Shown piece after piece: positions 3,145-39,454 of a DNA stretch of 64,000 nucleotides. Both the position numbers and the translations under genes were made by a program. Source of the stretch: an uncultured Gammaproteobacteria bacterium (GTDB lineage Bacteria > Patescibacteriota > Microgenomatia > Daviesbacterales > UBA10151); the NCBI GenBank assembly GCA_964551605.1, contig CAZKCV010000003.1:15474-79473 (forward strand), in the 5' to 3' direction. A model generated the notes under the pieces. It worked only from the letters and a program-made list of their open reading frames with translations. It had not been told where the DNA came from and searched no databases. Numbering within the stretch: the first letter of the stretch is position 1; each line of letters opens with the position of its first letter.

Positions 3145-3936
3145 TTACTCAAGCATACTAACCAGTAAATAAATAACAAACATCCCCAGAAAAAGTAATA
3201 TAGTTTGAATTATAGCCACATTTTTTTTGTCCTCATGGTGGATTTCCGGGATCAAGTCAGAGGCGGCAATATAGATAAAAAAACCGGCCGCTAAGGCCAG
3301 GAAAGCCGGTAAAAAGGCTTTTATATTCTCACCGACTAGAAAGGCAACGATCGCTCCGCCTATAGCCACTAAAGCGCTCAGGACATTGATAGCTATAACC
3401 TTTTTCTTTTTTAACCCCCTATGAAGCATAATGGCAAAGTCCCCTATCTCCTGGGGAACCTCATGAGCTACTATAGCCAGAGACGTTACCACCCCTAAGG
3501 GAATACTGACCATAAATGTTAGGGCAATCACTATCCCGTCAATAAAGTTATGAGTACTATCGCTAATAATTAGTAACGGGATAATTGATTTACCTTCCCG
3601 GGGGCTGGTATGGTCAGAAGCATGGTGGTGAAACCAATGGATAAACCGTTCCACCAAAAACAGCACGGAAAATCCGACCACAGCCCAAAGGAAAATATCC
3701 CCGCCAAACTCTTCTGCCTCCTCAAAAGCTTCCGGCAACAGATCAAAAAAAGCTGTTCCCAATAGCACACCGGCCGCAAAGGAAGTTAGAAAATGAGCTA
3801 TTTTAATAGCAAATTTTTCCTTATACAGCAGTATTAACCCCCCAATTAAAGAAGCAATACTGCCTAAGAATGTAAAAAGTAAAATATAACCTAAAACTGA
3901 CATGATTTTAATTATTATACACAATCTATTTTCCAA
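3145..3936 (-). CDS. ZIP family divalent metal transporter (ZupT-like)
   Basis: 263 aa polytopic protein with HHHASDH and HEVPQEIGDFAIMLHRGL, the ZIP signature with metal-coordinating His/Glu in adjacent TM helices. Confidence 0.8.
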   Translation of the reverse strand: MENRLCIIIKIMSVLGYILLFTFLGSIASLIGGLILLYKEKFAIKIAHFLTSFAAGVLLGTAFFDLLPEAFEEAEEFGGDIFLWAVVGFSVLFLVERFIHWFHHHASDHTSPREGKSIIPLLIISDSTHNFIDGIVIALTFMVSIPLGVVTSLAIVAHEVPQEIGDFAIMLHRGLKKKKVIAINVLSALVAIGGAIVAFLVGENIKAFLPAFLALAAGFFIYIAASDLIPEIHHEDKKNVAIIQTILLFLGMFVIYLLVSMLE

Positions 3937-4787
3937 ACACCTTTTTCTCTAAAAGCAGGAATAGTTTGACGCTTAGCTGCATTTAATATCACAGGGGCTG
4001 GTTTATTCTGCTGAATCGCAAATTCAGTAGCCTCAATAATTGTAGATCCTTTTAAATAAGCCGTTCTTTTATGTAAAGCCTCCATCAGGGCAAGCGAAAT
4101 TATTTTTCCCATTGTTTTAATTGTTTTATCATCTCTGTATTCCTTAAACGAGCTATAATAGATTTGTTTCTCCTTGTCCCGGATGATTATCCCCGGAAAC
4201 CCTAATCTATATAGCTGATAATTTATGATCACTCTGCCGATCCTACCATTACCATCATTAAAGGGGTGAATTGTTTCAAATTGCAGGTGGAACTTAGCAA
4301 TCTTGTCCACAAAATAACTTATGTTGTTACTTGAGTACTCTATTAAAGCCTCTTCAAGCATCCGTTCTATATGTTCCGGAGGTGGAGCAATAAAACTACC
4401 TATCCGGACATACTCTTCTTTCTTCCGTAATCTTCCGGCAATGCCTTCGTCTATATTCCCTAGTAACATTTGATGAAAAAGCAATATGGTTTCCTTAGAA
4501 AGCTCTTCCGAAGACTCGCCGCGCACATACTCCATAACCCCGGCCAGATTCTTAGCTTCGTAAACTTCACGCAGACTGACATTGCGTGAAACTTCCATCT
4601 CAAGGAGAATCTTTTCTGTTTCTTTCAAAGTAAGTGTGGAGTTTTCTATGGCATTGGAGTTATAAACACTTTCCGGAATTTCGGCTTCGTCAATAATTTT
4701 AAGTAAAGACTGCTTACCTATTTTAAAACGGTCATATTCTTTTTTAAGGGTTTCTATTCTTTTTTGCAGAAAAAGAGGAGTTGGCAT
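3915..4787 (-). CDS. Fic family protein (canonical HPFxDGNGR motif)
   Basis: 290 aa. HPFNDGNGRIGRVIINYQL matches the Fic core motif HPFx[DE]GNGRxxR. Confidence 0.8.
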   Translation of the reverse strand: MPTPLFLQKRIETLKKEYDRFKIGKQSLLKIIDEAEIPESVYNSNAIENSTLTLKETEKILLEMEVSRNVSLREVYEAKNLAGVMEYVRGESSEELSKETILLFHQMLLGNIDEGIAGRLRKKEEYVRIGSFIAPPPEHIERMLEEALIEYSSNNISYFVDKIAKFHLQFETIHPFNDGNGRIGRVIINYQLYRLGFPGIIIRDKEKQIYYSSFKEYRDDKTIKTMGKIISLALMEALHKRTAYLKGSTIIEATEFAIQQNKPAPVILNAAKRQTIPAFREKGVWKIDCV

Positions 4788-5015: not shown

Positions 5016-6110
5016 TTATTTAAAGTAAGTTTCATTGGCAAATTTGATTTGTTCAATAAACAATCTTTTAATATGGACTATACTGAGCTGCTCATAAAAA
5101 AGTATTAAGGCTTTCTTAAATTCCTCTTCATCCACACTCCTGTAAGATAAAGGGTAAAGATCCCAGGCCAGCAAGATAGCATTAGTTAACATCCTTCCTG
5201 TTCTTTTATTCCCGTCAGAATATGGCTGAAGATAGGGAATCATAACATGGGCAATTAGGGCCTTCTCAAAATAATCCTGAGCCAGATTTATTGCTTTGAC
5301 TATTCTCTCAAACGCCTCTTTTATTTGAAATTCATTGTCAGGGGGTCTATAAAGCGTGCCTGTTATACCCACCGCTTGTTTTCTAATTCCGGTGGAGATG
5401 GATAAATCCTTAACTAAAATATTATGCAGTTGATTAATGTCTGAAGTAGAGATTACCTGAAAATCATTTTTATTTTTAAGTATGGTGTCAAAAGCTGATT
5501 TATGGTTTAAAATCATAATAGCCTCATCCTTAGTTTTACCTCTCGCCTCTTCCTGCTCTTTAATTAAACTTTCAGTTTCCAGGAGGGTATAAGTGTTACC
5601 TTCAATTTTGGAAGACTTCCATGATAGCTCAATAACAAATCTTTCCAGTTCCCTTTGCAAGATGTCCGGTGCTAAATGGCTGGTTTTTTGGATAAAACTG
5701 AACTTCGATTTTTGAAGATCAGCCAGCTCGTTGGGTAATAAAAGGTTATGTAGAAATTTAAATACACCCCCGTCAAAACCTTTTTTAACATCTGCTCTTT
5801 TATCAGGATCCAGGGCAAAATACTGTTCAAGATCAAAATAGCGCAGGAGTGGATTATCTACCACTGATAAATAACGGGTTGCCTTTGCTTTACCGTCAAT
5901 TTTTATCAGCTTAGCACTAAGAAGAATATTCAAATCCCGGATTAATGTTGGTTTTGATATTGGATATAATTTCTCAACTTTTCCCTGAATTTCTTCTCTA
6001 AGTAACCCTTCTGACTGGTTGATAATATTTAAAATATAACTTTGCCTTGGAGTAAGGATCGTCTCATTCATGTGTATCAATCGTATCATATTGAGACGAT
6101 CTGTCAACAC
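5016..6110 (-). CDS. Fic/Doc family protein with variant core motif (QPYSDGNKRTGR) and N-terminal winged-helix-like region
   Basis: 364 aa. HVMIPYLQPYSDGNKRTGRMLTNAILL aligns to the Fic/Doc motif, but with Gln in place of the catalytic His and a Doc-like Lys. The N-terminal region (LTPRQSYILNIINQSEGLLREEI) looks like a wHTH. Confidence 0.6.
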   Translation of the reverse strand: MLTDRLNMIRLIHMNETILTPRQSYILNIINQSEGLLREEIQGKVEKLYPISKPTLIRDLNILLSAKLIKIDGKAKATRYLSVVDNPLLRYFDLEQYFALDPDKRADVKKGFDGGVFKFLHNLLLPNELADLQKSKFSFIQKTSHLAPDILQRELERFVIELSWKSSKIEGNTYTLLETESLIKEQEEARGKTKDEAIMILNHKSAFDTILKNKNDFQVISTSDINQLHNILVKDLSISTGIRKQAVGITGTLYRPPDNEFQIKEAFERIVKAINLAQDYFEKALIAHVMIPYLQPYSDGNKRTGRMLTNAILLAWDLYPLSYRSVDEEEFKKALILFYEQLSIVHIKRLFIEQIKFANETYFK

Positions 6111-11929: not shown

Positions 11930-12195
11930 CTCCCCCGAGAGGATTCGAACCTCTAACCTAGTCATTACTTTAATGGACTATCTCATCACCATAGATTAAA
12001 CCTTTAGGTGGTGGGCGCTTAAAGATGTACTCATCTAGTCTCTGCACCTTCCCCCCGCCAAAGGCGGGAGGCTTGGCTCAGGATTGTCCTTCACTTTCGT
12101 TCAAGACGTTCCCTGAATTCACCCACTTCTCATTCCGATGTTTCCACCGAAAGCTGCTAACACAGTGACCCGCTCTACCATTGAGCTACAGGGGA
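11930..12195 (-). tRNA. tRNA-Asn(GUU) interrupted by a ~194-nt group I intron in the anticodon loop
   Basis: Reverse complement gives exon 1 TCCCCTGTAGCTCAATGGTAGAGCGGGTCACTGT (12162-12195) and exon 2 TAATGACTAGGTTAGAGGTTCGAATCCTCTCGGGGGAG (11930-11967). Joined, these form a canonical cloverleaf with anticodon loop CU-GUU-AA, a TTCGAAT T-loop and a 7-bp acceptor stem with a U1-A72 pair. Confidence 0.75.
11968..12161 (-). ncRNA. group I self-splicing intron (core P, Q, R, S elements present) inserted after U of the anticodon loop
   Basis: The 5' exon ends in U and the intron ends in G (...ATTAAAG), as expected for group I introns. Intron sequence contains GAATTCAGGGAAC (P-like), AATCCTGAGCC (Q-like), GCAGAGACTAGA (R-like, GACUA G-site side) and GAGATAGTCC (S-like). 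Confidence 0.65.
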
Positions 12196-12304
12196 TTATC
12201 AATGTACGGGTGATATTTTATCATTCAATAACGCCGAAATCCACCCTATTATTTTTGCTTAAAATATAGATTGCCGCGCTAATCACTCGCAATGACGGAA
12301 CAGG

Positions 12305-13393
12305 CTATTCCAGGTAATCTCTTAACTTCTTAGCTCTGGTGGGGTGCTTGAGTTTCCTGATGGCTTTGGCTTCAATTTGCCTGATTCTTTCCCTGGTGAC
12401 CCCAAACTCTTTCCCTACTTCTTCCAGAGTCCGCTGTTTACCGTCTTCCAGCCCAAATCGAAGCTGGAGCACCCTTTTTTCCCGGGGTGACAGAGAGTCC
12501 AAAACTTCATCCAGGTGAATCTTTAATAGCTCTCTGGTGGCCTGTTCATCCGGCTGTAATCCCTGATCAGCGATAAAATCCCCCAAGTGGGAATCTTCCT
12601 CATCCCCTACCGGAGTCTCCAAAGAAGTTGGCTCCTGTGAAACCTTAATAATCTCCCGGGCTTTATTCTCATCTATCCCTAATACTTTGGCTACTTCATC
12701 CGGGGTAGGTTCCCTACCCAGCTCCTGCATTAATCTCCGCTGGGTCCGGTTAAACCTATTGATTGTTTCCACCATATGGACAGGGATACGGATAGTCCTG
12801 GCCTGGTCGGCAATAGCCCTGGTAATAGCCTGTCTGATCCACCAGGTGGCATAAGTAGAAAATTTATAACCCCTTCTCCAATCATATTTATCAACCGCCC
12901 TCATCAAACCAATATTGCCCTCTTCAATTAAATCCAACAAGCTCATCCCCCGCCCGACGTATTTTTTGGCTATTGATACTACCAACCGCAAATTGGCACT
13001 GATCAGCTTATCCCGGGCCCTCTTTTCATTTTTTTCTGCTTTTTTGGCCAGCTCTATCTCGTCTTGTGCTGTTAAAAGCGGAATTTTACCGATATCACGA
13101 AGGTATTGCCTAACAGGATCTGTCACCGCACCTCCCTCCAGAGTAGATAATATCTCCAACTCTTTTTCCAACTCAGAAGGGGTTTTACTCTCAGCCTCAA
13201 GTTCTTCCGTAGTAGTTTCAAAAACATCAATGTTTTCCGCAATTAACTTAATATAAAACTCGTCTAGCTCTTTTATTGTTTCCTCCGGCTTTGGGAAAAT
13301 CTGCAAGATCTCTTCTTGGGTCACAAACCCCCGATCCTTACCTAATTTCAGGAGTTTTTTAACGTCTAATTGTACTTGTTTTTTCTTAGCCAT
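12305..13393 (-). CDS. rpoD: RNA polymerase sigma-70 factor RpoD
   Basis: 362 aa. Regions 2-4 are conserved: [18 protein letters not shown], the [24 protein letters not shown] 2.4/3 region, and a C-terminal region 4 HTH ([28 protein letters not shown]). Confidence 0.9.
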
Positions 13394-13395
13394 AT

Positions 13396-13484
13396 ATTTA
13401 ATTAGTCGTCAGCTTTCAGCTTTCAGTCGTCAGATTTTTAATTTTTAGTCTGATAGCTGAAGACTGATGACTGATAGCTACTAG
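13396..13484. repeat. intergenic palindromic element built from inverted arrays of heptamer repeats (NNNTCAG x4 / CTGANNN x4) around an AT-rich centre; copy 1
   Basis: Left arm tcgtcag ctttcag ctttcag tcgtcag; centre atttttaattttta; right arm ctgatag ctgaaga ctgatga ctgatag. The element exactly fills the dnaG-rpoD spacer. A related copy lies at 24300-24380. Confidence 0.5.
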
Positions 13485-15322
13485 AGATTCTTCAACTTTA
13501 CCGACAAGTCTCTAAACCGCCTGTTCAAAGACTCTACTGTTTCCATCTTATCAAATTCCTGGGCATTCTTGATTTCCAGGGAAAGTTTTTCTAGGGATGC
13601 CTTGATTAAGGCTTTTTTAAGTTCTGAAACTACCCCCTCCAGCTCCTTCTGCCAGTATTTTGCATCAATCAGCTTGCTGTCAAGTTCTATTAAGTATAAT
13701 CTATCTATCTCTGAAAGCAACTCTTTTGGCAGGCCGGAGGCAAATTCATTAATATCAAATGCCCTACTCTTAAAAGATATGGAATCCAGGTATAATACCA
13801 GCAAAACAAAAATCTGGCGCCATTTTTCGGCTAAGAATAATGTTTCCGGAAAATTAGGAAAAAAATTGGATTCCTGTGGCGGATGTAGCAGCAAAGTAAT
13901 TAAATATTCCTCCAACAGCTCCCTTCTTGATTTGATAGAAACCACATTATCAGCAGTGGTTTTCTTCAGCAAATTAACATAGCTTTTTGAGGTCTCCTGA
14001 CGGGCTTTTTCTACGCTTTCTCTGATTATTTTTTCTTCGGTTTTCAAGAAGGCTGCCAGCCTTTGGATATAGCGCTCCCTGATTAAGTCATCCGTAATCT
14101 TCGCCCAGACAGGAATCAGCTCTTCCCCGATTCTCCTTAAATCTGCCGCTTTTTTAGTGTCATATCTTTTGGCAATCGAGGCCAAATAATAATCATAAAT
14201 AGGCACGGCTTCCTCCAAGGCCTTCTGCCATAGAGCAGGGTTCTCACGAATGACTTCTGCCGCATCCTTGCCGCCTGCCAATTGAATCACTGACAAATTT
14301 AAGCCGGCTTTATCTGCTATTTCAATACCACGGCGGGAGGCGCTATCTCCGGCCAAATCCATGTCAAAACCCAATTTTAGGTTTTCCGTATATTTTTTTA
14401 ACAGTTCAATTTGCCCTTCAGTTAAAGCCGTCCCCTTTGAGGCCACAATATTCTTAAAACCGGCCTGGAAAGACATAATCATATCCATTTCCCCTTCCAC
14501 CAAAATAGCCTCATTTGTATTCCTAATCTCTCCTTTGGCCAAATTGATACCGAAAAGGAAACTGCTTTTATCAAAAATTGCCGTCTGGGGGCTGTTAATG
14601 TATTTTGGCTCAGCCGGCAGTAAGACCCGGCCGGAAAAACCCCGCAGATGTCCTTTACCGTCAATTAAGGGAAAAGTAATCCGACCTCTAAAACGGTCAT
14701 AAGCGGAGCTTGCGGCTGCACCTAAGCTGCCGGATTTTGATGCTACCCCTAAACCGGAGGCAATAATTTCCTGGTGGCTAAAACCTCTTTTGAGTAAAAA
14801 CTTAGTCAAAGATTCCCAGGAATTAGGGGCATATCCCAAACCAAATTCTTCAATTGAAGAATTGCTGATCCCCCGTTTTCTTAAATATTCCAGGGCATTT
14901 TTACCCAGGGAGTGTTTGGTTAAAATATGGTGGAAAAATTCCTGGGCTTTTAAGTTAGCCTCAAACAACCGTTCCTTGGCATCTTTTTTATCAGAAGTCC
15001 TTTTCTGCAGAGTTATGCCGGCCTTTTTAGCCAACATTTCCAAAGCTTCCTTAAACTCCATGCCTTCCTTCTGCATCAAAAAGGTGAATAAATCGCCCCC
15101 AGCTCCGCAGCCAAAACAATGCCAGATTTGCCGTTCCGGAGAAACCACAAAAGAAGGTGTTCTCTCGTTGTGGAAAGGGCAATTGGCTTTAAAATTTACA
15201 CCTGATTTTTTTAGGGGAAGGTATTCGGAGATTAAATCAACAATATTAATTTTTTCTTTGATCAGATCAACGTCGTCCATAGCTTTGCAATCATCTTGTC
15301 GTCCGAAAAAACGGGACCACAA
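13481..15322 (-). CDS. dnaG: DNA primase DnaG
   Basis: 613 aa. N-terminal zinc ribbon CPFHNERTPSF...CFGCGAGGD, a TOPRIM domain (EAILVEGEMDMIM, DMDLAGD), and a position upstream of rpoD as in the classical dnaG-rpoD operon. Confidence 0.9.
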   Translation of the reverse strand: MWSRFFGRQDDCKAMDDVDLIKEKINIVDLISEYLPLKKSGVNFKANCPFHNERTPSFVVSPERQIWHCFGCGAGGDLFTFLMQKEGMEFKEALEMLAKKAGITLQKRTSDKKDAKERLFEANLKAQEFFHHILTKHSLGKNALEYLRKRGISNSSIEEFGLGYAPNSWESLTKFLLKRGFSHQEIIASGLGVASKSGSLGAAASSAYDRFRGRITFPLIDGKGHLRGFSGRVLLPAEPKYINSPQTAIFDKSSFLFGINLAKGEIRNTNEAILVEGEMDMIMSFQAGFKNIVASKGTALTEGQIELLKKYTENLKLGFDMDLAGDSASRRGIEIADKAGLNLSVIQLAGGKDAAEVIRENPALWQKALEEAVPIYDYYLASIAKRYDTKKAADLRRIGEELIPVWAKITDDLIRERYIQRLAAFLKTEEKIIRESVEKARQETSKSYVNLLKKTTADNVVSIKSRRELLEEYLITLLLHPPQESNFFPNFPETLFLAEKWRQIFVLLVLYLDSISFKSRAFDINEFASGLPKELLSEIDRLYLIELDSKLIDAKYWQKELEGVVSELKKALIKASLEKLSLEIKNAQEFDKMETVESLNRRFRDLSVKLKNL

Positions 15323-15394: not shown

Positions 15395-15481
15395 CGGTGG
15401 GAGAGGGATTCGAACCCTCGGTAGACTTACGCCCACACGATCTTTCCAGGATCGCCGGTTAAACCACTCCCGAATCCCACC
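15395..15481 (-). tRNA. tRNA-Ser(GGA), type II with long variable arm
   Basis: Reverse complement GGTGGGATTCGGGAGTGGTTTAACCGGCGATCCTGGAAAGATCGTGTGGGCGTAAGTCTACCGAGGGTTCGAATCCCTCTCCCACCG. Anticodon stem CGATC/GATCG, loop CU-GGA-AA, long variable arm, and a 7-bp acceptor stem. Confidence 0.8.
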
Positions 15482-15520: not shown

Positions 15521-15570
15521 AGACAATGCCCTTGACAAAAAACAGGTATTACTATAAAATAGGTAATACT
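15521..15570 (+). promoter_or_regulatory. promoter (TTGACA -35, TATAAAAT -10) overlapped by a 7-bp-arm inverted repeat GTATTAC-N10-GTAATAC; the start codon lies immediately downstream, implying a leaderless transcript
   Basis: ttgaca at 15521-15526; gtattactataaaataggtaatac spans the -10 region; ATG at 15571. The longer ORF start at 15526 would contain the -35 box, so 15571 is preferred. Confidence 0.45.
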
Positions 15571-15867
15571 ATGTTGCAAATTCAAGCTACTACTATTACT
15601 CAAAAAGGGCAAGTAACAATACCTGCACCGGTCAGAAAAGCTTTAGGCCTGAAACCCGGCGATCAAATAAATTTTAAAGTTACCGGCAAAACTAAGGCAG
15701 AGATAAAACCTAAAAAGAGATTTTCTATCATGTCACTCTACGGCTCCTTAAAACCAAAAGTCATACCAAATCTAAGCGGCCAGGAGCTAATTAAATGGGA
15801 AGAACAGGCTTGGCCGCAAGCAGCTGTAGAAAGAGATCAAAAAACTATGAGAAGTATTAACAAGTAA
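15571..15867 (+). CDS. AbrB/MazE/SpoVT-type antitoxin (VapB-like)
   Basis: KGQVTIPAPVRKALGLKPGDQINFKV is the swapped-hairpin beta-barrel motif of AbrB/MazE antitoxins. The gene lies directly upstream of a PIN gene. Confidence 0.7.
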   Translation: MLQIQATTITQKGQVTIPAPVRKALGLKPGDQINFKVTGKTKAEIKPKKRFSIMSLYGSLKPKVIPNLSGQELIKWEEQAWPQAAVERDQKTMRSINK

Positions 15868-15872
15868 AAATC

Positions 15873-16274
15873 ATGATTTTACTTGATGCTAATATTATCC
15901 TGCGTTTTATTCTTGCTAATGACCCCGAGCTTTCTCCTAAAGCTGAAATTATAATTAAAAAAATTGAACAGGGAAAAGTAAAAATTCAGATAACTCTACT
16001 GGCTTTTTCGGAAGTGGTTTTTACTTTGGAGAGAGCTTACAAGATGCCTAAAGCAGAAATTACCCAAAAATTACTTTATTTACTACAAGTTAACAACTTA
16101 AAATTCGAAAAACAGAATATGCTACCTGAAATTTTTAAGTATTACCATGAAAAAAATATCAGTTTTATTGATGCTTACCATATTGTCCTGATGAATAAAA
16201 AGAAAATTAAGAATATTTATTCTTTTGACCGGGATTTTGATAAATTTCCTGAGGTTAAAAGACTTGAAAATTAA
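15873..16274 (+). CDS. PIN domain toxin (VapC-like)
   Basis: 133 aa. The N-terminal MILLDANIIL carries the first catalytic Asp. Further acidic residues are distributed as in VapC (FIDAYHIV..., SFDRDF). Confidence 0.8.
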   Translation: MILLDANIILRFILANDPELSPKAEIIIKKIEQGKVKIQITLLAFSEVVFTLERAYKMPKAEITQKLLYLLQVNNLKFEKQNMLPEIFKYYHEKNISFIDAYHIVLMNKKKIKNIYSFDRDFDKFPEVKRLEN

Positions 16275-19804: not shown

Positions 19805-20581
19805 TTATATATCAAAAAAAAATTTAGTAACAGTTGCTCTATCAAATTCTGTTTTCCAGCTATCATAAGAAGATATATCTTTAATGAAACTTCTTTTCAG
19901 TAACTTAGGATTACTAAAACCAATCCTTTCTCGATATATGTCTATGCTTTCATGATTACTTAAATAAAGCGATCTCTTCATTGTAAGCGTAGGCTTTAAA
20001 CCTAAATTGAGTAAGTTATCTTTTACAAATCTCATAAGTATCATATTTGCATTCCTGAAATTTAATTGTTTGTAAACACGAATCCCCTTTCTACTGTTAT
20101 AAAGCTTAAATGATATTGACCCCTCTGTGTCGAATAACCCACGAACGCATGCTCTACTATATTCTTCTCTCTTCAATATCCAATTTGGCACTACTTTTGC
20201 GTTGGATATAATCCCCATGCTTTTAAGAAAATTTACCGCGATTTTGGAATTTATTCTAATATCTACAGCATTTTCTCTTTTTCTTTTGATTACAGAAAAA
20301 GTGGCTCCAGGAAATAAGTTTCTTGCTAAATTTTCCACATATGATAAATAATCTCGATCCGCGATAAAGTTTAGTGTAATACCTACCTGATAACCAGAAG
20401 CATAGCCATCTCCAAGACAAATACCAATAAATTCTGCTAAAAGTTTACCTTTACGAGGCAGTGTTACTTTATTAAGGCCATTCCTATTATAACCACTTGA
20501 ACATGATAAAGAACAAAATTTACGAATACTTTCTCTTTTCCGATACTCATTCTTACAATGTTTGCAAACACCAAGCATCAT
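19805..20581 (-). CDS. LAGLIDADG-family homing endonuclease-like protein (double motif) with N-terminal Zn ribbon
   Basis: 258 aa. CKHCKNEY...CSLSCSS Zn ribbon; first motif LAEFIGICLGDGYAS; second motif CVRGLFDTEGSISF. Apparently free-standing, not inside an intron or intein. Confidence 0.65.
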   Translation of the reverse strand: MMLGVCKHCKNEYRKRESIRKFCSLSCSSGYNRNGLNKVTLPRKGKLLAEFIGICLGDGYASGYQVGITLNFIADRDYLSYVENLARNLFPGATFSVIKRKRENAVDIRINSKIAVNFLKSMGIISNAKVVPNWILKREEYSRACVRGLFDTEGSISFKLYNSRKGIRVYKQLNFRNANMILMRFVKDNLLNLGLKPTLTMKRSLYLSNHESIDIYRERIGFSNPKLLKRSFIKDISSYDSWKTEFDRATVTKFFFDI

Positions 20582-21883: not shown

Positions 21884-22311
21884 ATAATTGATTTTAAGCC
21901 TATTTTGTGGTAATATACAAACCTGGGGATGTATTGTCTCGACAGAATTGCTCTTTGAAAACTGCAAGCCGAATAGGAAACATTATTCGTTAAATATTGT
22001 TTCAAAACACAAACGGCAATAAAATTGTCGGATCCCTCAAGGGTCAAATTCAAAGCCTTATGGCTTTGAACGGCCAAGGCAGCTTTGCTGCTTTAGCAGC
22101 CTAACAGGGTACTTTAGAAATTGTTCTCTTTCTGACGGAATACTAAAGTACGTACAAAGTCAGGATGCTGTTAATCAGGTGTTGGTTGATCCGTATTAAC
22201 AAAAGACAACTCAATCATTCATTAGTTTTCCTGCTAATTGGTTACAACTAATGAACAAAAATTAATTAGCTAAGCTTGTAGAAGATTTTAAAGTCACAAT
22301 TTTGGACGGGG

Positions 22312-22839
22312 GTGCAAAGCCCCCCATCTCCACCCATTGACTATAACTCCACAGTAATATACGCTGAAGGTGTGAGAAAAAAGTGTCTTAAGTGTTATAG
22401 AATATTTGCTCCATCCAGTAGACACATACTATGTCCATCTTGTAGAGGACAAATATACAAAAAGCCATGTCCTAACTGCGGAAAGCTTATCCAACCAAAA
22501 TCATTTCTTTGTGGCAAATGCGACGGTATGAACCGAAGAAAAGCGGACGGTGATCTTTACACTGATAAGAAAGGTTATATTCTTGTTTTTTCTAGAAATC
22601 ATCCAAGGGCATCAAATCGTTATGTTTTTGAACATATTTTAGTGATGGAGAAAAAGTTAGGAAGATATGTATTACCCAATGAAAATATTCATCATAAAAA
22701 TGGTGTTAAGGATGATAATCGCATTGAAAATTTGGAATTATGGGTCAGACCGCAACCAACAGGGGTAAGAGCAAAAGATGCCATAGTTTGGGCAAAGGAA
22801 ATATTAAAAACTTACGGGAATGACGAAAATCAGTATTAG
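22312..22839 (+). CDS. HNH endonuclease with N-terminal Cys-rich Zn-ribbon repeats (homing-endonuclease-like)
   Basis: CLKCY..CPSCRG..CPNCGK..CGKCDG followed by the HNH core NIHHKNGVKDDNRIENLELW. The ORF as listed starts with GTG inside a G5-N8-C6 hairpin. The true start could be a downstream ATG. Confidence 0.7.
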   Translation: MQSPPSPPIDYNSTVIYAEGVRKKCLKCYRIFAPSSRHILCPSCRGQIYKKPCPNCGKLIQPKSFLCGKCDGMNRRKADGDLYTDKKGYILVFSRNHPRASNRYVFEHILVMEKKLGRYVLPNENIHHKNGVKDDNRIENLELWVRPQPTGVRAKDAIVWAKEILKTYGNDENQY

Positions 22840-39110: not shown

Positions 39111-39454
39111 ATAACTCCTGCTCGGGATAAAAAATTGTGGTCGGTCTCCTGACTTTACCCTTCGATTCCACTCAGGGTTATAACAGTTGCGGCACAGTCT
39201 CTGATTTACACAGAGTTCCCTTAAGAGCGAAGCTTGCAAGCTCCGCTTATTGTACTTTGAGTTCAATTCTGAACCTAGTACACCACCATCCCAGCATAGC
39301 CGGAGAATTATCAATTTTCAAGTCCCAATTTTCTCCACTGATTTAATCTGATCTTGTCCGAATTGATCTGTTTTGTGCCGCTTGCCAATACTTTTTTCAC
39401 GTTGTATAACAGTGATGAGTTCGTAGTTGGTAGTTCGTAGTACTAAGTTATAAA

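Follow-up and report, generated by a model that had tools for sequence, protein, structure and literature searches.

The 64-kilobase (kb) stretch of DNA analysed here (the window; positions 15,474 to 79,473 of contig CAZKCV010000003.1) carries on its minus strand a transfer RNA (tRNA) gene, tRNA-Asn(GUU), that is interrupted in its anticodon loop by 194 nucleotides (nt). The interruption is a real group I intron at canonical position 35/36, and almost certainly a functional one. Our full reading, to which we assign a probability of roughly 85%, is that this is a functional tRNA-Asn(GUU) gene of a bacterium of the Patescibacteria (candidate phyla radiation, CPR), split between U35 and U36 by a self-splicing group I intron of the IA lineage that contains no open reading frame (ORF).

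The two halves of the tRNA lie, exact to the base, where the initial annotation had placed them. Exon 1 (12162..12195, 34 nt) holds the acceptor 5' strand, the D arm, the 5' strand of the anticodon stem and the loop nucleotides C32, U33, G34 and U35, the last being U(-1) at 12162. Exon 2 (11930..11967, 38 nt) supplies U36, A37 and A38, the 3' strand of the anticodon stem, the variable loop, the T arm, the acceptor 3' strand and the discriminator G. Joined as 12195-12162 plus 11967-11930, they form a canonical tRNA of 72 nt with the acceptor stem TCCCCTG/CGGGGGA and the anticodon loop CU-GUU-AA; CCA is not encoded. ARAGORN calls the joined exons tRNA-Asn(gtt), and its intron-aware mode recovers the same gene from the genomic DNA, giving the intron a length of 194 nt and the exon borders as actgt|...aaag|taatg. 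The program's linear 34/35 is canonical 35/36 because the D loop has no position 17, and the insertion separates G34-U35 from U36 (CUGU|...G|UAA). The intron spans 11968..12161, on the evidence of Rfam RF00028, ARAGORN and the alignments A1 and A2 described below, and the precursor is 266 nt long (11930-12195). Both the default mode of ARAGORN and the Rfam tRNA model miss the split gene.

The junction 12162/11968 is the single boundary with a U at -1 and a G at the intron end that restores a tRNA. A two-base shift to an apparent tRNA-Thr(UGU) interrupted at 33/34, as seen in many relatives, is impossible here, since the intron ends in UUAAAG and not in ...GUG. The Rfam 3' end at 11958 was rejected because the model's P9 overruns into exon 2 by the last ten bases, and an alternative P1, CACUG/CGGUG, because it would move the U.G wobble two nt upstream, where no tRNA is possible; its bases form P2 instead. 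The public gene call on GCA_016184225.1 places an 86-amino-acid ORF over exon 1 and most of the intron (window 12034-12294, plus strand; 4100-4360 of L001), which has no Pfam match and is almost certainly spurious.

That the insertion is a group I intron, beginning after a U and ending in G, was borne out as well. The covariance model Intron_gpI (RF00028) matches 11958-12169 on the minus strand over its full length, 1-253, with 69.1 bits against a gathering score of 50 (E = 1.9e-15); U(-1) forms a U.G wobble with G5, and the intron ends in its terminal guanosine (omega-G), G194 at 11968. All core helices P1-P8 and P10 can be drawn, and the pairings P1 with its wobble, P3 and P7 are supported by the covariation analysis. 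All the helices bar P7, which is pseudoknotted, come out of an unconstrained minimum free energy (MFE) fold (P2, P3, P4, P5, P6/6a, P7.1 and P8). The strings first picked out as the conserved P, Q, R and S elements proved to be J3/4-P4, P4'-P6, J6/7-P7 and J8/7-P7', and their columns are invariant or nearly so across 52 members of the family.

Numbering intron nucleotide i as window position 12162-i on the minus strand, P1 (12154..12165) pairs the exon bases C-U-G-U(-1) (12165-12162) with G5-C6-A7-G8 (12157-12154), four pairs that are invariant in 52/52 sequences of A1 and 20/20 of A2. The bases between them, G1-U2-U3-A4 (12161-12158), double as the P1 loop and as the guide of P10, where, read directly in the sequence, they face the exon-2 bases U-A-A-U (11964..11967). 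P2 (12133..12152; intron 10-17 / 22-29) has 8 base pairs (bp), all with compensatory changes, and is capped by the GAAA loop L2 (18-21). The strands of P3 lie at 12121..12126 (36-41) and 12011..12016 (146-151), with 99-100% of alignment cells paired and 4 pairs covarying in A1. The P4-P5 domain (12078..12116), which like P2 appears in the MFE fold, contains the P and Q elements; P4 (46-50 / 80-84; 97% of cells paired, 4 pairs covarying) encloses P5/P5a (55-59 / 72-76 and 62-63 / 68-69), which carries a GAAA loop and has 3 pairs that covary within the subfamily of A2. P6 and P6a occupy 12046..12077, P6 (85-87 / 114-116) being invariant and P6a (91-99 / 103-111) covarying at 4/4 tested pairs.

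The 5' strand of P7 (12036..12042; G120, the bulged A121 and G122-A126) is the R element and its 3' strand (11975..11980; intron 182-187, U182-C187) the S element, with 6 pairs invariant in 52/52 sequences. P7 and P3 form a pseudoknot, so our pair counts used bracket types that allow pseudoknots. By analogy with group I introns of solved structure, the pair G122 (12040):C186 (11976) would be at the position of the guanosine-binding pair. Between P7 and P3' lies P7.1, the hairpin GAUG-AGUA-CAUC (12024..12035; intron 127-138, pairing 127-130 / 135-138), seen in both alignments; in the window it shows a two-sided compensatory change from G:C to A:U at one pair, the sole such case in 20 sequences. 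P8 (11987..12010; 152-155 / 172-175 and 159-160 / 168-169) has covarying proximal pairs and holds CCUAAAG...CUAUGG, a motif akin to the 11-nt GAAA-tetraloop receptor; to judge from this likeness, it is a likely docking site for L2. The intron closes with the seven-nt tail A-U-U-A-A-A-G (11968..11974; 188-194), ending in omega-G, which stands in place of the P9 segment; the intron has no ORF, no P7.2 and no P9. A further hairpin, CAUUA-AAG-UAAUG across the 3' splice site, is possible in the window; finding no support for it in the tails of the other subfamily members, we dropped it.

A scan of one genome per species, with a core pattern blind to the host gene, found the same core at at least 120 loci in many phyla. 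After uniform re-annotation, at least 75 loci have the CUGU| junction; among the matches listed, 68 of these are in tRNA-Asn(GUU), 5 in tRNA-Tyr, 1 in tRNA-His and 1 in tRNA-Asp. The ARAGORN calls of tRNA-Thr(UGU) split at 33/34 (n=20 among the matches listed) are a two-base boundary artefact known from the literature (PMC13011429). Alignment A1, made with MAFFT, holds 52 sequences: the window intron, two from the literature and 49 members of the family that have no ORF. In it, 90.7% of cells at paired positions are paired, against 31-40% when the partners are slid; compensatory changes occur in 27/45 pairs, with P1, P6 and P7 invariant, and the observed covariation score was matched by 0/500 shuffles. 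Fifty-four columns are invariant over the 52 sequences. P5 has only 53% of cells paired in A1 because a length-variable region is misaligned there; within the subfamily that lacks P9 the figure is 98.7%. The window intron aligns over the whole core with the validated intron of GCA_016700035.1 and with that of GCA_016700135.1.

The host tRNA itself, which the initial annotation had thought noteworthy, no longer is: tRNA-Asn is the commonest group I host in Patescibacteria (PMC13011429) and was listed in 2020. In that year Williams increased the known types of group I intron in bacterial tRNA genes from 4 to 21 (bioRxiv 10.1101/2020.01.27.920355), and these include 'Asn.4Ug' (per PMC13011429). 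Nakagawa et al. (preprint 2025, mSystems 2026; PMC13011429) found tRNA-Asn to host 15/22 tRNA introns in 95 complete Patescibacteria genomes, and Patescibacteria to contribute 19/28 of the 35/36 introns in complete bacterial genomes. The Patescibacteria tRNA introns are of subgroup IA and not IC3, are 184-894 nt long and mostly lack endonuclease genes (PMC13011429). The same study demonstrated accurate in vitro self-splicing at 35/36 in two steps dependent on guanosine triphosphate, blocked by mutation of omega-G to C, for the 234-nt, P9-containing intron of GCA_016700035.1 (PMC13011429).

The window intron has much in common with these published 35/36 introns in tRNA-Asn and in tRNA-Asp. It has the same host tRNA, the same insertion (CUGU|...G|UAA) and the same invariant P1 (CUGU/GCAG), and the core strings GGUGAAUU, AGCCAAG, CAGAGACUA, AGCGCC and GAKAUAGUCC are common to both, as are the extra helix between P7 and P3', the lack of a homing endonuclease gene and, probably, the kind of host. 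Unlike them, it has 7 nt and not 27-29 nt between P7' and omega-G, no P9 or P7.2, a shorter P1 (4 bp), GAAA and not GUAA as L2, and a receptor-like P8; compared with the validated intron of 234 nt, it is shorter by 40 nt. P7.1, in the expected place and with its compensatory change, is a trait of subgroup IA, P7.2 being absent.

Several points weigh against our reading. The 7 nt between P7' and omega-G leave no P9, a helix found in 50 of the other 51 aligned relatives; the segment from the P7 3' strand to omega-G is 27-29 nt in 50/52 sequences of A1 and forms a hairpin whose GNRA loop, GAAA in most cases, hardly varies. In Table S3 of the 2026 survey the P9 hairpin is present in all fifteen tRNA-Asn and three tRNA-Asp 35/36 introns, and the only intron without it is in a Doudnabacteria tRNA-Phe, at 33/34 (PMC13011429). 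P1 is short: after 4 bp it meets an A.C mismatch, whereas in most relatives it runs to 5-6 bp. Self-splicing at 35/36 has been shown only for the P9-containing homologue of GCA_016700035.1 (PMC13011429), and catalysis by the window's own copy would follow from it by analogy. The placement in subgroup IA, which we think probable, is drawn from the position of P7.1 and from homology, and that of the host in the Patescibacteria (CPR) from synteny, protein similarity and the accession series (the NC_groundwater CPR metagenome-assembled genomes, MAGs). Finally, the search with ARAGORN for a second tRNA-Asn gene was limited to the 64-kb window, within which it found none; the split gene is presumably the only tRNA-Asn gene of the genome.

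The missing P9 is shared with other introns. Metagenome contigs were scanned with a pattern designed to fit P9-less tRNA-Asn introns alone; this gave 88 matches, about thirty of them real split tRNA-Asn genes with the full core, and these yielded 20 distinct P9-less introns including that of the window. They measure 174-261 nt, and 13/20 are shorter than 200 nt. In the alignment of this subfamily (A2, n=20), the 5' end GUUAGCAGC is invariant, L2 is GAAA in 20/20 and P8 reads CACCUAA(A/G)...(U/C/A)A(U/C/A)GGUG in 20/20; P7.1 is a hairpin of the form GGUGA(G/U)UACACC, and the tail is A-rich and 6-8 nt long. The P10 guide GUUA is invariant, facing an exon 2 that starts UAA(C/U), in 20/20. As many as 98.5% of cells are paired, against 35-45% when slid, with 17 compensatory pairs, and all eight P2 pairs covary. 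Six relatives, the 174- and 177-nt introns among them, exceed the Rfam gathering score. A tRNA-Tyr intron with an 11-nt tail (L024), the remaining exception in A1, was tried as a second P9-less type and set aside, its ARAGORN 3' boundary being probably wrong.

Across A1, every receptor-like P8 is accompanied by a GAAA L2 (8/28 vs 0/24; Fisher p = 0.005), and it is for this reason that we propose a clamp between L2 and P8, which would stabilise the fold where P9 is gone. We incline, with a confidence little better than even, to the view that the window intron represents a natural, lineage-specific class of P9-less group I introns in which one strong GAAA(L2)-receptor(P8) clamp replaces the L9/P9 contact and the 3' splice site is set by P10 and omega-G alone; if so, these would be the shortest natural self-splicing group I introns known. 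The Azoarcus intron, at 205 nt, is longer than the window intron, at 194 nt, and than its relatives, which reach down to 174 nt. Our literature searches found no explicit statement naming a smallest group I intron. The shortest P9-less intron, at 174 nt, compares with a minimum of 184 nt in the 2026 survey (PMC13011429). In the part of that survey's tables that was compared, the signature strings of the P9-less introns do not occur, and the subfamily is not among the published Patescibacteria tRNA introns compared there.

If the gene works as we propose, its 266-nt precursor would fold into P1-P8, with the GAAA loop of P2 probably docking into the receptor-like P8 and so holding the fold in place of the missing P9 contact. 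A free guanosine at G122:C186 of P7 would attack the bond after U35, presented as the U.G wobble of the 4-bp P1 (CUGU/GCAG). The terminal G194 would next occupy the same guanosine site in P7, P10 (GUUA / exon-2 UAAU) would align the 3' exon, and exon ligation would restore the GUU anticodon.

An alternative is that the intron is real and removed in vivo but is not autonomous, needing a protein cofactor or chaperone, or unusual ions, for folding and for the second step now that P9, with its L9 contact, and P7.2 are gone. Many organellar group I introns depend on proteins, the P1 of the window intron is only 4 bp, and the near-fixed 27-29 nt of P9 with its GNRA loop in 50 of 51 other relatives, as in all published 35/36 introns in tRNA-Asn and in tRNA-Asp, suggests that this element normally matters. 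The P9-less subfamily, however, has a complete catalytic core and a universal combination of GAAA L2 with receptor-like P8 that could compensate. The proteomes of Patescibacteria are very reduced, there is no maturase-like ORF in or beside the intron, and engineered sunY (T4 nrdD) mini-ribozymes lacking the region 3' of P7/P9.0 reportedly stay active. Since nothing is missing from the core and we see no gene for a cofactor, we do not favour this explanation and regard it as unlikely.

Much less probable still is that the intron is a decaying relic, inactivated by the deletion of P9, in a tRNA-Asn pseudogene whose role is filled by another gene. The missing P9 itself, and the restriction of our tRNA-Asn search to the window, would allow for this, but the same architecture recurs in the 20 sequences of A2, whose differing P2, P5 and P6a stems still pair. 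These compensatory changes argue for function, and the window has one of its own, on both sides of a P7.1 pair. Its exons are undamaged, as are U(-1), omega-G, P1, P7 and P10, and the window offers no other tRNA-Asn. That the locus, coming from a metagenome-assembled genome, is an assembly artefact, or an unrelated structured RNA with the halves of a tRNA on either side by chance, can be dismissed, given the covariance-model E-value and, above all, because an identical insertion point and core recur in about 100 independent contigs, at least 68 of them from genomes and about 30 from metagenomes of many samples.

Other known introns resemble the P9-less intron in different respects. The self-splicing IC3 introns of bacterial tRNA genes (Azoarcus sp. 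BH72 pre-tRNA-Ile(CAU), tRNA-Leu UAA, fMet and Arg CCU) are also small (~200 nt), lack ORFs and interrupt the anticodon loop, and in them, as in the window intron, the anticodon loop and stem provide P1. The Azoarcus intron has its L2, a GAAA loop, docked into a P8 receptor, the contact that we suggest for the window intron. Azoarcus, though, has a P9 with an L9 tetraloop contact, which the window intron lacks. Nor is the window intron, which would work in the manner of these introns, an IC3 intron: it lies at 35/36 and has a P7.1, whereas IC3 introns are inserted at 33/34, 34/35 or 36/37 (PMC13011429) and have no P7.1.

The IA introns of phage protein-coding genes, such as T4 td and nrdD ('sunY'), have an IA-type core in common with the window intron, but often carry endonuclease ORFs and have a P9 region, both of which it lacks. 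The pattern GTGAATT...AGCCAAG...CAGAGACTA is abundant in viral contigs, where 121/125 matches are outside tRNA genes, and the core motif was accordingly rejected as a marker specific to tRNA-Asn: it marks a wider IA-type core. BLAST of the window intron against phage genomes gave weak core matches only, in jumbo-phage genomes.

The split gene follows dnaG (13481-15322) and rpoD (12305-13393), both on the minus strand and identified with Pfam, and begins 110 nt past the rpoD stop codon. This order of dnaG, rpoD and intron-bearing tRNA-Asn recurs in many MAGs named Parcubacteria, Paceibacterota, Nealsonbacteria and similar, and a DUF5652 gene lies near the locus. The RpoD protein is identical to one on GCA_016184225.1 (contig JACPDA010000004.1), and its best named full-length matches are in Parcubacteria/Nealsonbacteria MAGs (56-57%). 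Its closest full-length matches (67-70%) are on contigs that also bear a P9-less intron, which fits vertical inheritance in one lineage. Transcription of the tRNA may start at a weak promoter-like site at 12292-12263 (minus strand), which is a consensus match only, or may come from rpoD read-through. The MAG labelled 'Candidatus Woesearchaeota archaeon' has a tRNA-Asn group I intron on a contig (L069, CAYTFL010000170.1) with a bacterial-type RpoD, 67% identical to that of the window over 236 amino acids; the contig is almost certainly bacterial (CPR) and was mis-binned into an archaeal MAG. Williams noted the same mis-binning for a 'Pacearchaeota' bin (bioRxiv 10.1101/2020.01.27.920355).

The LAGLIDADG and HNH genes that had been pointed out nearby do exist, as free-standing genes 8-10 kb away and outside the intron. 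The LAGLIDADG_3 ORF (19805-20581, minus strand, E = 1.5e-9) lies between tRNA-Arg(GCG) and tRNA-Ser(UGA) in a six-tRNA cluster (Ser x4, Arg x2) and is not within any detectable intron; the HNH_3 ORF (22312-22839, plus strand) also has a double zinc ribbon. We see no connection between either gene and the ORF-less tRNA-Asn intron, and the published HNH genes of tRNA-Asn introns sit inside the intron (PMC13011429).

Group I introns at 35/36 of tRNA-Asn were already known, and the P9-less architecture, found in introns as short as 174 nt, is structurally novel to a modest degree. The findings extend by a small step what was described recently and open no long-standing question. The window intron would add a further case of a self-splicing intron kept in an essential, probably single-copy tRNA gene of Patescibacteria despite extreme genome reduction. 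Where standard tRNA finders miss such a split gene, the genome seems to have no tRNA-Asn and completeness estimates are distorted, a point also made in PMC13011429. The P9-less introns offer a natural experiment on how much of the periphery can go when there is another tertiary contact, and the subfamily (174-200 nt, with many natural variants) could serve as a naturally minimised group I scaffold.

Reduced introns of other kinds also came to light. Four same-family introns at 35/36 of tRNA-Tyr(GUA) in Omnitrophota MAGs (L030, L055, L119 and L121; 198-222 nt) have lost P7.1 and P7.2 (CAGAGAC-UAAGCGCC) and kept P9, which is a different route to a minimal intron; they likewise have a GAAA L2 and a CCUAAAG-type P8. 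A second metagenome group of tRNA-Asn introns, with exon 1 starting TCCGAGG... (L144, L151, L154, L163, L168, L182, L184-L186, L193, L195, L199 and L207; 266-569 nt), keeps exactly 14 nt between P7' and exon 2, AGUCACUAGCACUG for example, and its P9 appears to be shortened or rearranged, not absent. Among the P9-less loci, one contig (L149; Ga0114944_1026375, 250-1151) has ~900 nt between rpoD and tRNA-Asn, compared with the window's 110 nt; the intron there measures 177 nt, with P5 almost deleted, and the contig's rpoD 3' end is 81% identical in DNA and 97.6% in protein over 82 amino acids. Another metagenome contig with a P9-less tRNA-Asn intron (L123) also carries a LOOT RNA (Rfam RF03000, 89.1 bits) at 3813-3935 on the minus strand.

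Elsewhere in the window, a transfer-messenger RNA (tmRNA) gene at 21925-22334 (plus strand, 410 nt, Rfam 124.8 bits) has a tag that ARAGORN makes unusually long, at 29 residues (GNKIVGSLKGQIQSLMALNGQGSFAALAA); the tag region holds about 90 nt more than the Rfam consensus, aligned with low posterior probability. The HNH_3 ORF starts at 22312, inside or abutting the 3' end of this gene, and since tmRNA 3' ends are common integration sites it could mark one border of a mobile element. A MazE-like antitoxin / PIN-domain toxin pair (15526-16274, plus strand) is directly upstream of the dnaG operon, and two adjacent Fic/DOC-domain ORFs (3915-4787 and 5016-6110, both on the minus strand) lie about 6-8 kb beyond the tRNA on the other side. 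A cobalamin riboswitch aptamer is present at 39122-39259 (minus strand; Rfam 39.9 bits against a gathering score of 31.5), in what is apparently a reduced CPR genome.

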